DNA from: Lachnospiraceae bacterium
Lineage (GTDB): Bacteria > Bacillota > Clostridia > Lachnospirales > Lachnospiraceae
Direction: 5' to 3'
DNA: 30,448 bases
Assembly: GCA_017613225.1 (NCBI GenBank)
Contig: JAGAEH010000204.1
Coordinates: 1-30,448, forward strand
Numbering within the stretch: position 1 is the stretch's first letter; each line of letters opens with the position of its first letter. The position numbers and the translations under genes were made by a program. The notes under the pieces are model-generated. The model ran no database searches, was not told where the DNA came from, and saw only the letters and a program-made list of their open reading frames with translations. Of this stretch, positions 2,995 through 15,143 are shown in pieces.

Positions 2995-3189
2995 ATGGTA
3001 AAGTATAAGACCAAGAGAGCCGCTGCGAAGCGCTTTCACAAGACAGGAACCGGACAGTTAAAGAGGATGAAAGCTTACAAGAGCCATATCCTGACCAAGA
3101 AATCCCAGAAGAGAAAGAGAAATCTTCGTAAGGCAACCATTACGGATCCGACCAACGCAAAGGTCATGAAGAAACTCATGCCTTATTAA
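2995..3189 (+). CDS. rpmI: 50S ribosomal protein L35
   Basis: [38 protein letters not shown], between infC and rplT. Confidence 0.98.
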
Positions 3190-3210
3190 TCAGTAGAGGA
3201 GGATGAAAAG

Positions 3211-3567
3211 ATGGCAAGGATCAAAGGCGGCGTAGGCGCCAGAAAAAGACATAACAGAGTATTGAAGCTGGCCAAGGGCTATCGCGGAGCTCGTTCCAAA
3301 CAGTACCGCACCGCGAAGCAGACCGTAATGAAGGCCCTCACCAATTCCTATGCGGGCCGCAAGCAGAAGAAGCGCCAGTTCCGCGCGCTGTGGATCGCCC
3401 GTATCAACGCGGCGGCCAGGATGAACGGCCTTTCCTACAGCCGTTTCATGTTCGGCTTGAAGCAGGCCGGCGTCGAGATGAACAGAAAGGTCCTGGCGGA
3501 TCTGGCTGTCAACGACGCAGCAGGTTTTGCGAAACTTGCCGAAGTTGCGAAGGCAAAACTCGCATAA
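3211..3567 (+). CDS. rplT: 50S ribosomal protein L20
   Basis: [51 protein letters not shown]. Confidence 0.99.
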
Positions 3568-3608: not shown

Positions 3609-3633
3609 GTATGAGGGCGTGATGCCCTCACTT

Positions 3634-3707
3634 CGGAGCGTGGCTCAGTTTGGTAGAGCGTCCGGTTAGGGACCGGGAGGTCGCAGGTTCGAATCCTGTC
3701 GCCCCGA
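3634..3707 (+). tRNA. tRNA-Pro (anticodon AGG)
   Basis: Cloverleaf CGGAGCG/CGCCCCG (A4-C69 mismatch), D arm GCTC/GAGC, anticodon arm TCCGG-TT-AGG-GA-CCGGG, T arm GCAGG-TTCGAAT-CCTGT, discriminator A, C1-G72 as in tRNA-Pro. CCA not encoded. Confidence 0.93.
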
Positions 3708-3757
3708 TTTTTTTATTCGTATCAGCAGGAAGCACTATCTTCGATGCTACGAGTTTT

Positions 3758-11682: not shown

Positions 11683-12930
11683 ATGAACAGAGAATTCCAC
11701 ATGGGCAACCGGGAAAAGCTGATCGCTACCCTGCCGCAGCACTCCCTGACCGTCATATTCGCGGGCCATGCGCCGATGAAGACCGGCGATGAACCCTATC
11801 CCTTCTATGCCAACCGCAATTTCGTCTATCTCACAGGCATCACCCAGGAAGACAGCATTCTGCTGATCGACAAGACTCCGGAGCAGACCAGGCAGATCCT
11901 CTTTGCCCTGCCGCCGGACGAGCACGCGGAGCGCTGGACGGGCCGCCGCGTGAAAGCCTACGAGGCGGAAAGGATCGCGGGCATCACCGAGTTCATGTAT
12001 CTGGATCAGTTCGACAGCTACGTTCACCGCTGCATGAAGAGCGATCACTACAACGACGTCTGTCTGGACCTGTACCAGAACAGCGTGAACGACGCGGACA
12101 GCGAGGCCATCAAATACGCGGCGAAGGTGCGGCAGCAGTACGCCTGGGTAAAGATCCACAACATCTCCCTGCAGCTGAAGCGCCAGCGCGTGATCAAGCA
12201 GCCCTGCGAGATCGAGGCCATGCGGAAGGCGGCGGTGATCACCCGGGCCGGCATCGTGGCCATGATGAAGGCGTCGAAGCCCGGCATGTGGGAATATGAA
12301 TACAAGGCTGAATTCGACTACGCCCTGACCAAAGCCGGCTGTTTAAGCCCCGGCTTCCCCAGCATCATCTCCGCCGGAGACAACAACTTCTGCATCCACT
12401 ATTACGCCTACACCGGCCAGGCCAAGGACGGCGACATGATCTTAAACGATGTGGCAGCCCAGTACGACGGCCTGACCAACGACGTATCCCGGGGCTGGCC
12501 CTGTAACGGCAAGTTCACAGAAAAACAGCGGGCGCTGTACCAGTGCGCCTATAATACATCCCAGCACATGTTCAGCATCATCAGGCCCGGCATGAAAATG
12601 CGGGACGTGGACCGTCTGGCCAGGGAATACAACTTTGAGCAGCTGAAGGCCATCGGTCTGCTGGACGACTACAAGGATATCGGGAAATACATGTGGCACG
12701 GCGGCGCCCATCACGTGGGCTACGACGTCCACGACATCGTGGACGTGGATATCATCGAACCCGGCATGGTGTTCTGCGTGGACATCGGCATCTACGTGCT
12801 GGAGTGGGGCATCGGCTTCCGCCTGGAGGACAACTGCCTGGTCACCGAGGACGGCTGCGAGAACCTGACCGCGAACATCCCCCGCACCATCGAGGACATC
12901 GAAGCCGTGATGGCCGGGGAGATGGAGTAG
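11683..12930 (+). CDS. pepP: Xaa-Pro aminopeptidase (aminopeptidase P, M24B)
   Basis: N-terminal YPFYANRNFVYLTGI; M24 metal ligands in HY...DV..YDG..ND.SR, H..HHVGYDVHD and GFRLEDN.LVT. Confidence 0.9.
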   Translation: MNREFHMGNREKLIATLPQHSLTVIFAGHAPMKTGDEPYPFYANRNFVYLTGITQEDSILLIDKTPEQTRQILFALPPDEHAERWTGRRVKAYEAERIAGITEFMYLDQFDSYVHRCMKSDHYNDVCLDLYQNSVNDADSEAIKYAAKVRQQYAWVKIHNISLQLKRQRVIKQPCEIEAMRKAAVITRAGIVAMMKASKPGMWEYEYKAEFDYALTKAGCLSPGFPSIISAGDNNFCIHYYAYTGQAKDGDMILNDVAAQYDGLTNDVSRGWPCNGKFTEKQRALYQCAYNTSQHMFSIIRPGMKMRDVDRLAREYNFEQLKAIGLLDDYKDIGKYMWHGGAHHVGYDVHDIVDVDIIEPGMVFCVDIGIYVLEWGIGFRLEDNCLVTEDGCENLTANIPRTIEDIEAVMAGEME

Positions 12931-12932
12931 GA

Positions 12933-13019
12933 GCCTGCCATCCTGAGCGCAGCACGCGGAGCGTCTGAAAGGAGCGCAGTCGAAGGATCCCCCGGGACAA
13001 TGTCCAAGGGGGATCTTTT
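12933..13019 (+). repeat. Second REP-like element fused to a terminator after pepP
   Basis: GCCTGCCATCCTGAGCGCAGC...GCAGTCGAAGGATCCCCC shares both ends with the 10376-10477 unit; GATCCCCC/GGGGGATC-TTTT forms a terminator stem. Confidence 0.75.
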
Positions 13020-13043
13020 CCTTCAAAAAAAGTGAAAAAACAT

Positions 13044-13072
13044 TTGACAATTCGATTTCATCATAGTAATAT
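13044..13072 (+). promoter_or_regulatory. sigma-A promoter of tRNA-Thr
   Basis: TTGACA (13044-13049), 17 nt, TAATAT (13067-13072). Confidence 0.8.
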
Positions 13073-13085
13073 AACGCTTGCACGT

Positions 13086-13158
<73 letters not shown>

Positions 13159-13170
13159 TTTTTATTGTGA

Positions 13171-13196
13171 AAAGGCACCCTGACGGGTGCTTTTTT
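13171..13196 (+). terminator. Intrinsic terminator after tRNA-Thr
   Basis: GCACCC-TGAC-GGGTGC-TTTTTT. Confidence 0.8.
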
Positions 13197-13212
13197 AATA
13201 GCTGAAGGGCTC

Positions 13213-13515
13213 TGTCGGCTTTTTTAGGGGGTTTTCTTTCTGATAGCCGACACTTCCCCTCGTTTTCTTTATAGACCAGGAAAACCAGCGCATGGATGTC
13301 GGCTAAAATCTCGGTTTTGAGCAGATCAAGCCGACATTTCTTTAGGAATCTTTTTATTCATAAAGTGCTTGTAGGGAGTTTTAAGGATATCTGTCGGCCA
13401 CCTGTGGAAAATCTCGTGAAAATAGCCGACACCAGCCACTCGGCACCCTGTCATTACAGTTCCGGATCGTACGTTGGTCGGCTATTTAGGACGTATTTGC
13501 GTTTGGCAGCCAACA
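13213..13515. repeat. Array 1: four units of TGTCGGCT-N24-AGCCGACA
   Basis: Units start at 13213, 13297, 13392 and 13476 (periods 84, 95, 84). The interior is exactly 24 nt in all four but differs in sequence. Units 3 and 4 carry 1-2 substitutions. Confidence 0.9.
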
Positions 13516-13536
13516 GAGAAAAACAAGAGCCCCTGC

Positions 13537-13746
13537 ATCCTACTCCAATACGGTGTAGGGAGACCTTCACTGGACCTCCGAATATCCCACTTATTGGGAC
13601 TAGCCACCAACACGTTTTGTCCGCTAACCCGTATCATGATTGCTCGCACAAAGCAAGAGAATACCGGTACTGAACCTCCGCCCATCAGGCCGAAATCCAA
13701 TACCGGTATCTCGGCTCCTAGATCCTACTTCAATACGAGGCAGGGA
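13537..13746. repeat. Interarray repeats: 25 bp direct repeat pair and paired TACCGGTA palindromes
   Basis: ATCCTACTCCAATACGGTGTAGGGA (13537-13561) vs ATCCTACTTCAATACGAGGCAGGGA (13722-13746), 21/25 identical; AATACCGGTA at 13660 and 13699. Confidence 0.7.
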
Positions 13747-13837
13747 AGGAGCTTTTCTTAGTATACTCCATGCGGTTTAAATCGGCAAGCAGGACTTTGC
13801 CGCATTTGAGGCTCAGTTTTCGGTCTGCACGGGCACG

Positions 13838-14133
13838 AAAGCAGATACTTTGGACAGTAACCGGTTAAAGTATCTGCTTTTGTGTTGAACAGGAATCGTT
13901 CCCGGACCCGGATCCGGGTGATGAAGCAGATACTTCCCCATGTTTTGACCATTTGTATCTGCTGAAAAATGGACTTTGGCATGTGGGAACGTCTGTCATG
14001 ATAAAAATCCAGCAGATACTTTGCCGCAAAAACAGGGCGGGTATCTGCTTTCTATGATCCAGCAAGGTAATCAGACTGCGAAAATGAAGGGAAACAGCAG
14101 ATACTTTACCGAAAAAACCGAAAAGTATCTGCT
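13838..14133. repeat. Array 2: four units of AGCAGATAC-N21(20)-GTATCTGCT
   Basis: Units start at 13840, 13925, 14011 and 14096 (periods 85, 86, 85). AGCAGATACTT is invariant on the left; unit 1 is a perfect 14 bp inverted repeat (AAAGCAGATACTTT/AAAGTATCTGCTTT). Confidence 0.92.
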
Positions 14134-14134
14134 T

Positions 14135-15025
14135 TTACGGCTGATCCTCCTCGGCATAATCCGCCAGCAGTTCTTCGGTCTCGGCATTCAGTGCCAGCGC
14201 TTCGCGGGCCGCGCGCTCTTCCTCCAGCGCGCGGTTTAAGGACGCGCCTAAAAGCAGGATCGTCATCAGGGTGCGCAGCCACATGATCACTAAAAAGATG
14301 GAAGCCAGCGGGCCGTAGTAGGAGGCGGACTTCCAGAATCGCGGAATGAAGAAGGCAAAGCCGCGGGAGAAGCCTTCGCCGATCAGCATGGTAAAGATGG
14401 CGCCGGGCAGCTGGCTCTTCAGGCTCTTGGTGCGGCCGGACAGGAAGGTGTAGGTCAGCACCACCAGGAAGACGGTGACGCCCAGGGTGACCAGCCGGCT
14501 GACGCGCATGATCAGGCCGATCAACACGCCGGAATCCGGGATCAGTTCGATCAGGGCATCCCGGATGGTATCACCCAGCAGGTGGAAGACCAGCAGGGCC
14601 GGCACCAGGATCAGGAGCAGCAGCGTATAGAGGATCACCGTGATGAGGCTGCGCAGCGGGTTTTTGATGTCGTAGACCCGGGCCATGGCCTTCTGCAGAG
14701 CGGCTACGCCCCGGGAAGCGGACCACAGGGACAGGATGGCGGAAACGGAGAGCATCAAGCCCCGGGACTGGCCGCTGATGTTGCGGATCAGGTTCAGGAT
14801 CATGTCCCGGATCTGGTCCAGGTCCGGCAGGATCTTCAGCAGAAAGTGGGAAAGATCGTCCGTATTGAAAAAGGGCAGCAGGTTCACGATGGAGGTGATC
14901 AGCATCAGCAGCGGCACGAAGGACATGACGATGTACAGCGTGGTATGGCCGGCGTACACCGTCATCTCTTTTTGGGAGAAGATCTTCCAGGTGTTCGTGA
15001 TGATGCGTTTCAGCTTTTCTTTCAT
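14135..15025 (-). CDS. YihY/virulence factor BrkB family membrane protein
   Basis: MKEKLK..., AG..TLYIVMSFVPLLML, LSLWSAS.GV.AL.KAM.RVY, KSQLPGAIF, YYGPLASIFLVIMWL, ILLLGASLN; multiple TM helices. Confidence 0.9.
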   Translation of the reverse strand: MKEKLKRIITNTWKIFSQKEMTVYAGHTTLYIVMSFVPLLMLITSIVNLLPFFNTDDLSHFLLKILPDLDQIRDMILNLIRNISGQSRGLMLSVSAILSLWSASRGVAALQKAMARVYDIKNPLRSLITVILYTLLLLILVPALLVFHLLGDTIRDALIELIPDSGVLIGLIMRVSRLVTLGVTVFLVVLTYTFLSGRTKSLKSQLPGAIFTMLIGEGFSRGFAFFIPRFWKSASYYGPLASIFLVIMWLRTLMTILLLGASLNRALEEERAAREALALNAETEELLADYAEEDQP

Positions 15026-15031
15026 GTTTGA

Positions 15032-15060
15032 ATCATAGCGCAAAAAGCCCCCGATTACAA
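15032..15060 (-). promoter_or_regulatory. sigma-A promoter of yihY, probably giving a leaderless mRNA
   Basis: Minus strand TTGTAA (15060-15055), 17 nt, TATGAT (15037-15032), then 6 nt to the ATG at 15025; no SD. Confidence 0.6.
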
Positions 15061-15071
15061 ATTGATTATTG

Positions 15072-15100
15072 TTGACCAAAAATGCAAAGAGAAGTATTAT
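15072..15100 (+). promoter_or_regulatory. sigma-A promoter of pta
   Basis: TTGACC (15072-15077), 17 nt, TATTAT (15095-15100). Confidence 0.65.
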
Positions 15101-15143
15101 CAAGGTAGTATTCCAAATTCAAATCCGAAAGGAGTCTACCGTC

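Follow-up and report, generated by a model that had tools for sequence, protein, structure and literature searches.

In REP/BIME systems with RAYT (TnpA-REP), also called 'REPtrons', palindromic units of 20–50 nt, dispersed in many and often tandem copies, are preceded on their 5′ side by a conserved tetranucleotide, usually GTAG, and the tnpA-REP gene is itself flanked by the same repeats (PMC8266576). A second described group, reported in Bacillus and other Firmicutes (Subirana and Messeguer, 2021; PMC8161180), consists of tandem repeats of constant size and variable sequence, with sizes of 20–21 and 52 nt. These repeats are non-coding and near whole helical turns in length; a binding protein is suspected and their function is unexplained.

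Here we examined an array of inverted-arm units, array A, on a 30,448-nt contig of a Lachnospiraceae bacterium (C194; this whole stretch of DNA is hereafter the window). The host MAG is rumen-type, measures 1.87 Mb in 269 contigs and is 74% complete. We found that array A is a single member of a dispersed family of polar modules, each of four units, in which several arm specificities occur; this is the main point that a preliminary description of the locus had missed. The family is undescribed and species-restricted; we found no published description of it, and a full-text literature search for the 8-mer arm returned primer sequences only. Like REP/BIME elements, the modules have units of 20–50 bp with palindromic ends, are intergenic and often at gene 3′ ends, occur in tandem clusters, are species-specific in sequence with several families per genome, and bear a conserved motif beside the palindrome. 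Unlike REP/BIME elements, their units are palindromic in the outer 7–11 bp only, around an interior of fixed length and free sequence, and the modules have exactly four units, are polar and keep invariant gap lengths. In addition, the units of the four families described below (A to D) do not surround the one Y1 transposase gene of the genome (74% assembled), and GTAG was found next to the arms in none of 20 family-A units. The constant-size repeats resemble the modules in being non-coding, in keeping size over sequence, in having sizes near whole helical turns and in forming several equal-length families within one species, but the module periods are 83–86 nt and, across one gap, 94–96 nt, rather than 20–21 or 52 nt, and each module has a fixed number of four units, with accessory motifs as well as conserved inverted arms. 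Multi-site nucleoprotein sites, namely plasmid centromeres and iterons (parC, sopC) and res/att recombination sites, are similar in having several dimer sites in fixed register over 100–300 bp, polarity, accessory-factor motifs and bendable AT-rich spacers; however, those sites lie beside their cognate gene, once per replicon, whereas the modules are present in at least 17 scattered copies.

The geometry of array A agreed with the preliminary description, with four units of 24-nt interior, gaps of 44/55/44 nt, periods of 84/95/84 nt and half-site starts 32 bp apart (Table 1). The arms had been described as one pattern repeated four times; this is exact for units 1 and 2, and array A counts as fourfold only if one arm mismatch in unit 3 and two in unit 4 are tolerated. 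The outer G of unit 4, which follows GTTG, is kept at the same terminal unit in 5/5 family-A arrays, and since this G at the first arm position is common to all five, it is inherited and not a sign of decay. The exact array-A pattern occurred twice in the window and not once in 100 shuffles, and single 8-mers with one mismatch elsewhere in the window were no commoner than chance. The signal of array A is the paired arrangement of the arms, not the single 8-mers, and a chance origin of the pattern is excluded.

Table 1. Coordinates of arrays A and B and of the features around them, in positions of the window.
Feature	Position	Strand	Description
tRNA-Thr(GGT)	13086..13158	+	own terminator hairpin at ~13170-13197, just left of array A
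Array A, unit 1	13213..13252	-	TGTCGGCT-N24-AGCCGACA, exact; last unit in module polarity, after conserved motif
Array A, accessory motif	13253..13267	-	+ strand CTTCCCCTCGTTTTC = - strand GAAAACGAGGGGAAG; family consensus GAAAATGAGGGGAA, immediately before terminal unit
Array A, unit 2	13297..13336	-	arms exact, interior 24 nt
Array A, middle gap	13337..13391	.	55 nt here; C127 has 45 nt, the remaining three copies have 54-56 nt
Array A, unit 3	13392..13431	-	left arm TGTCGGCC (1 mismatch), interior 24 nt
Array A, gap-palindrome remnant	13453..13463	.	ATTACAGTTCC, from conserved GGAACAGTTCC / GGAACTGTTCC
Array A, unit 4	13476..13515	-	arms GGTCGGCT / AGCCAACA; first unit in module polarity
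Unique stretch between arrays A and B	13516..13839	.	324 bp; no Rfam match, no copy elsewhere in the genome
Array B (Array 2)	13840..14133	+	four units AGCAGATAC-N20/21-GTATCTGCT, periods 85/86/85
Array B, motif	14082..14094		AAAATGAAGGGAA
BrkB-family (YihY) membrane-protein gene	14135..15103	-	converges on the arrays

We then searched the genome for arm pairs with at most one mismatch in all, and obtained 19 pairs at spacing 24 vs 1 at any other spacing from 0 to 60. The spacing-24 pairs listed were 20 units, which apart from a lone unit on C250 fall into five four-unit arrays; the first unit of the C187 array (position 2761) was added by eye. These five arrays make up family A, in which the interior is N24 in 20/20 units and the periods are 84/95/84 in the window, 84/95/83 on C60, 84/96/83 on C130, 84/85/84 on C127 and 84/94/84 on C187. 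A generic scan for inverted 7-mers ~40 bp apart recurring at 70–115 bp identified family B, with eight four-unit arrays including array B of the window. The same scan yielded a third family with arms CCGGCCGC (family D), to which a covariance model added two more arrays (C26 and C57), and a decayed array on C159 has arms AGCAGACGAAA. Besides A and B there are thus two arm families, C and D. Over the four families there are ~70 intergenic units of 37–40 bp, and the modules number at least 17, spread among housekeeping genes. All four families are non-coding and have a period of ~85 bp in common, whereas their arms differ. Separately, homogeneous tandem arrays of at least five family-D 85-bp units are present at C209 931–1320 and C26 2944–3240, each unit preceded by AAAA(T/C)GAGG. 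Both lie directly upstream of gene starts, one of the genes being of dihydrolipoyl-dehydrogenase type, and they look like recent tandem expansions of a single unit.

The five family-A arrays could be aligned in one relative orientation only. Besides the arms, they have in common CTTCCCCTCATTTT directly after one terminal unit, the GGAACAGTTCC palindrome in the opposite outer gap and GTTGG before the other terminal unit. The layout of family B matches that of family A, with TTTTGGAACTGTTCC in the first gap and GAAAATGARGGGAA 2–4 nt before the last unit, and family D follows the same scaffold, the gap motifs being common to A, B and D. The scaffold is polar: GGAACTGTTCC occupies one of the outer gaps, and AAAATGAGGGGAA, a 13-nt motif, precedes the last unit and no other. 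The arms of all families also have a common outer pentamer pattern (TGTCG, AGCAG and AGCCG, with TGCAG in a relative). Within the window, arrays A and B are built on the same scaffold in opposite orientation, their motif-bearing ends pointing outward to the tRNA and to the BrkB-family gene, and the last arm of array B abuts the stop codon of that gene. Two repeats lie in the stretch between the arrays: a direct repeat of 33 nt (13529–13561 and 13714–13746), whose copies are 185 bp apart with 79% identity, and an inverted repeat of 22 nt (13661/13688; 13661–13709).

Segment lengths, measured between the 8-nt arm cores, were nearly constant in both large families. In family B, 8/8 arrays had segments of 20/21-48-21-49-21-48-20/21 nt; in family A, they were 24, 44, 24, (45 / 54 / 55 / 55 / 56), 24, 43/44 and 24 nt, so that gap lengths either stay within ±1 nt of one another or change by roughly a helical turn, and the middle gap is the sole large length polymorphism within the family. 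The one-turn indel proposed in the preliminary description is thus borne out by the homologous arrays of the same genome, as is the constant interior, and the change between 45 and 54–56 nt appears to be a single event common to four arrays. By contrast, the sequence between the arms has drifted far, with a non-arm identity among family-B copies of 32–45% (mean 40%; random expectation 26%), and the copies are star-like, all pairs being about equally distant. This comparison contained zero indels over five equal-length segments (187 nt per copy). At such divergence tens of indels are expected from bacterial non-coding indel-to-substitution ratios, as a rough and not a computed figure; at ~40% non-arm identity we saw almost none. 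Between strains, the 291-bp array on C196 had 0 SNPs vs 0.8–1.3% in the flanking genes (strain 98.9% identical over 3.3 kb), which argues that the fillers are not hypervariable, and in a second assembly of the same species the tRNA-to-gene spacer was identical.

To the extent that the units pair, they do so through their arms. The complementarity between interior halves was 3.55 of 12 in family A and 4.12 of 10 in family B, vs 3.9 and 4.28, respectively, for halves mixed between units. RNAalifold paired the arms in several alternative ways and gave no covariation beyond them. Since there is no unit-specific pairing past the 8-bp arms, long RNA stems are unsupported, in line with the preliminary description. 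Arm variants in true arrays were one-sided in ~16 cases and compensatory in 1 (C8:1745); the loosened arm search behind these counts (up to three mismatches) gave mostly chance matches for the GC-rich D arms and was used for true arrays only. A single-sequence fold of array A scored z = -3.7 against shuffles, a value expected from eight complementary 8-mers. Among Rfam 15 covariance models, tRNAs alone reached the gathering threshold, and nothing credible was found at E ≤ 1 in 13100–14200. A terminator scan of 12900–14300 scored no array-A unit as an intrinsic terminator, and the loops would be 13–24 nt.

The interiors had been described as unrelated; their sequence is indeed mostly free, but AT-rich patches are common to both edges and to the exact centre. 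The folded AT profile of family A starts at 0.82 at the edge, falls to 0.40 and rises to 0.97 at the centre, and family-B interiors have the same three AT patches, ~10 bp apart. Across whole arrays, AAA/TTT autocorrelation gave weak peaks, and GATC was not enriched in the arrays. Together, the constant interior and gap lengths, the confinement of pairing to the arms, the mostly one-sided arm variants and the AT patches favour spacing-constrained sites on double-stranded DNA.

All arrays are intergenic and their neighbours are housekeeping genes (holA, rpsT, pepP, pta, ClpB-like, hisS, EamA and others, as well as genes for lipoate ligase, a dihydrolipoyl-dehydrogenase-type oxidoreductase, PPIase, M42 peptidase, PadR, a membrane protein and a lipoprotein), with no gene family recurring beside them. 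The motif-bearing end faces a gene 3′ end in ~10/16 arrays and the remainder lie between co-directional genes, so orientation to neighbours (~10 vs 6) is biased and not fixed. We found no candidate binding protein in the assembled 74% of the genome, and since the genome is 74% complete, the partner gene could simply be missing from it. The same 74% held no gene for Cas1, for a serine recombinase/resolvase or for a NERD-domain protein, and there was no partition or recombinase gene near the arrays and no nuclease-like neighbour. The single Y1_Tnp match was a 244-aa IS200/RAYT-like gene (C160 2159–2893; L011 1465–2199), which is flanked by CACAAAAGGACCGTCCCTGTGTG-type palindromes and not by A–D units. 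The palindrome of this transposase, CACACAGGGACGGTCCTTTTGTG, has dispersed copies, one of them (L140 3395–3460) just upstream of the C196 family-B array, and gene and palindrome together resemble a canonical REPtron-like system, here of a Firmicute, that is distinct from the modules. Elsewhere in the genome, an unusually dense cluster of six parS-like sites (TGTTTCACGTGAAACA; spacings ~42–84 bp) lies within coding sequence, inside an rsmG-like ORF (C50 11070–11350; L015 ~3071–3351).

The strongest alternative to sites on duplex DNA is a hairpin-based, REP/BIME-like element, in which the arms would pair in single-stranded DNA or RNA and the hairpin with its 5′ motif AAAATGAGGGGAA would be read by an HUH/RAYT or nuclease-like partner, or would stabilise or terminate mRNAs from within their 3′ UTRs. 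The arms are perfect inverted repeats that can form hairpins of 8–11 bp, which speaks against a duplex-only reading, and the families keep complementarity with different sequences. A conserved motif stands before the terminal hairpin as GTAG does before REP; the terminal unit comes right after a gene 3′ end in ~10/16 arrays, in the order hairpin then CTTCCCCTCATTTT; and the one compensatory arm change and the fold z-score of -3.7 are in keeping with pairing. However, the loops would be 13–24 nt and of an invariant length that a hairpin does not require, the gap lengths are invariant as well, and pairing is confined to the arms. The palindrome around the sole Y1 transposase gene is not that of the modules, neither a NERD-domain gene (in the assembled 74%) nor a nuclease-like neighbour was found, zero array-A units scored as intrinsic terminators, and the orientation to neighbouring genes is mixed. 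We consider a hairpin-based element possible but rather doubtful. The preference of the preliminary description for phased protein sites over RNA stems therefore stands in part: N24 in 20/20 units and pairing only in the 8-bp arms agree with it, while no binding protein was found, a short RNA or ssDNA hairpin of 8–11 bp is still compatible with the data, and the helical-turn indel counts as a single evolutionary event.

We next compared the locus with that of a sister species; the BrkB-family proteins of the two species share 76% identity. In the sister species, the stop codon of the BrkB-family gene is ~35 bp from the same tRNA-Thr, with a single terminator hairpin between them, and here the distance is ~975 bp, so that a ~950-bp block with both arrays was gained here or lost there. 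At a second locus, that of an aminotransferase, synteny in the sister species is broken just past the gene and therefore gave no clean empty site, and the members of the GTDB genus proved too divergent for synteny to be traced (BrkB-family (YihY) ~60% identity, pepP mostly not found). Exact arms of families A and B were absent as arrays in 40 relatives. The two-unit pattern, searched in 185,579 species genomes and in JGI metagenomes, returned just unrelated repeats or chance matches and no N24 arrays of this kind. Among these, JGI metagenome sequences L079 (1740–2031) and L072 (2625–2805) have tandem 42-bp palindromic units matching TGTCGGCT-N24-AGCCGACA, at ~40% GC and beside carotenoid genes. 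These units differ from those of the window in that they directly adjoin one another and in that their interior is conserved around a central AAGCTT; the repeat is probably unrelated and picked by the search pattern, and it may have a binding specificity in common with the window units.

A covariance model of motif plus hairpin recovered new copies in the modules' own genome and, among 140 relatives, a single credible unit (G001:C80), the other matches being coding sequence or ordinary terminators. This unit, from the nearest genus member, keeps GAAAATGAGGGGAAAT, has arms GCAGGCCGCATTT and lies just past a gene end, near a contig end. The same model found no units in ~20 kb of sister-species contigs, and the 12-mer AAATGARGGGAA, counted across 200 family genomes, proved too common a word to be informative. 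Two further features of the window were observed along the way. A dispersed repeat with the hairpin GGATCCCCC/GGGGGATC, of the form CATCCTGAGCG...GCGCAG(C/T)CGAAGGATC, is present at 12935–13020, between pepP and the tRNA-Thr promoter, and again at C26 2774–2860; and ARAGORN predicted a tRNA-Pro at 3633–3708 whose AGG anticodon is unusual in a bacterium.

The modules could also be MITE-like non-autonomous relics, with arms that served a transposase both as binding sites and as terminal inverted repeats; after spreading in a burst, the copies would have no host function today. This would account for dispersed copies in which each module starts and ends with an inverted arm, for the star-like copy phylogeny, for the several arm families (as with several transposase lineages) and for the block that is present here and absent in the sister species, for which gain and loss are both possible directions. 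MITEs, too, have terminal inverted repeats and insertion polymorphism between related genomes. The modules differ in having no target-site duplications: the longest flank matches had a mean of 4.07 nt vs 4.03 nt in a random control. Neutral decay does not fit ~60% divergence outside arms that are themselves intact, as are the lengths, and neither an autonomous copy with these ends nor a serine recombinase was found in the assembled 74%. We therefore regard such relics as improbable.

If the variable interiors or gaps were spacers, the modules would be an array of CRISPR-like or other guide RNAs, with which they share the regular alternation of short conserved and unrelated constant-length segments. 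We rejected this highly improbable reading because what is conserved is 8-bp inverted arms and not a full-length direct repeat, the number of units is four throughout with gap motifs in common, the interiors have low complexity and an AT pattern, strains do not differ in their arrays, and no cas1 was found in the assembled 74% of the genome.

Returning to sites on duplex DNA, array A is a copy of a species-restricted ~300-bp intergenic module, and we tentatively favour the reading, which may well prove wrong, that this is a phased protein-binding module with a REP/BIME-like lifestyle. Invariant arms and lengths, unpaired interiors, AT patches in helical phase and the mixed orientation to genes all suit such sites. 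The module is polar and consists of four units of ~85 bp, each containing a 37–40-bp site whose two ends are inverted copies of a family-specific 7–11-bp motif. The spacer between the ends is fixed in length and free in sequence, with AT patches about one helical turn apart, and the accessory motifs GGAACTGTTCC and AAAATGAGGGGAA mark the two outer gaps and set the polarity. In the proposed mechanism, the ends would serve as half-sites for a sequence-specific dimeric DNA-binding protein spanning the bendable spacer. Four such dimers, ~8, 9 and 8 helical turns apart and roughly on one helix face, may then assemble into a higher-order complex, and families A to D would be read by diverged specificities. 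The modules would have been acquired beside gene 3′ ends, with selection then keeping arms, accessory motifs and geometry. Two measurements go against phasing: the half-site spacing is 32 bp in family A and 28–29 bp in B and D, which are not all whole helical turns, and family B, at periods of 85–86 bp, does not stay in a 10.5-bp register.

Purifying selection on the sites of one protein does not readily account for families that differ at all eight half-sites of a module and yet keep the gap motifs constant. A possible, if speculative and at present doubtful, extension of protein binding is that the modules are the cis-half of an undescribed repeat–protein partnership on duplex DNA. They would form a genome-wide set of helically registered docking lattices for four dimers each, with several co-evolving arm specificities. 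A host function, for example in local chromosome organisation or in transcription insulation, would account for their retention at gene ends, and the partner protein itself would homogenise their arms.

The modules are an unusually clean case of size conserved over sequence, in which eight copies with only ~40% of bases in common agree in all seven segment lengths, the one indel that is tolerated measures about a helical turn, and one scaffold carries four arm 'alleles'. The joint change of all eight half-sites within a module is an evolutionary puzzle. Given the defined arms and lengths, the hypothesis of a phased DNA-binding lattice is directly testable, and if a partner protein is found, the modules would be a duplex-DNA counterpart to REP/RAYT in uncultured rumen Firmicutes.
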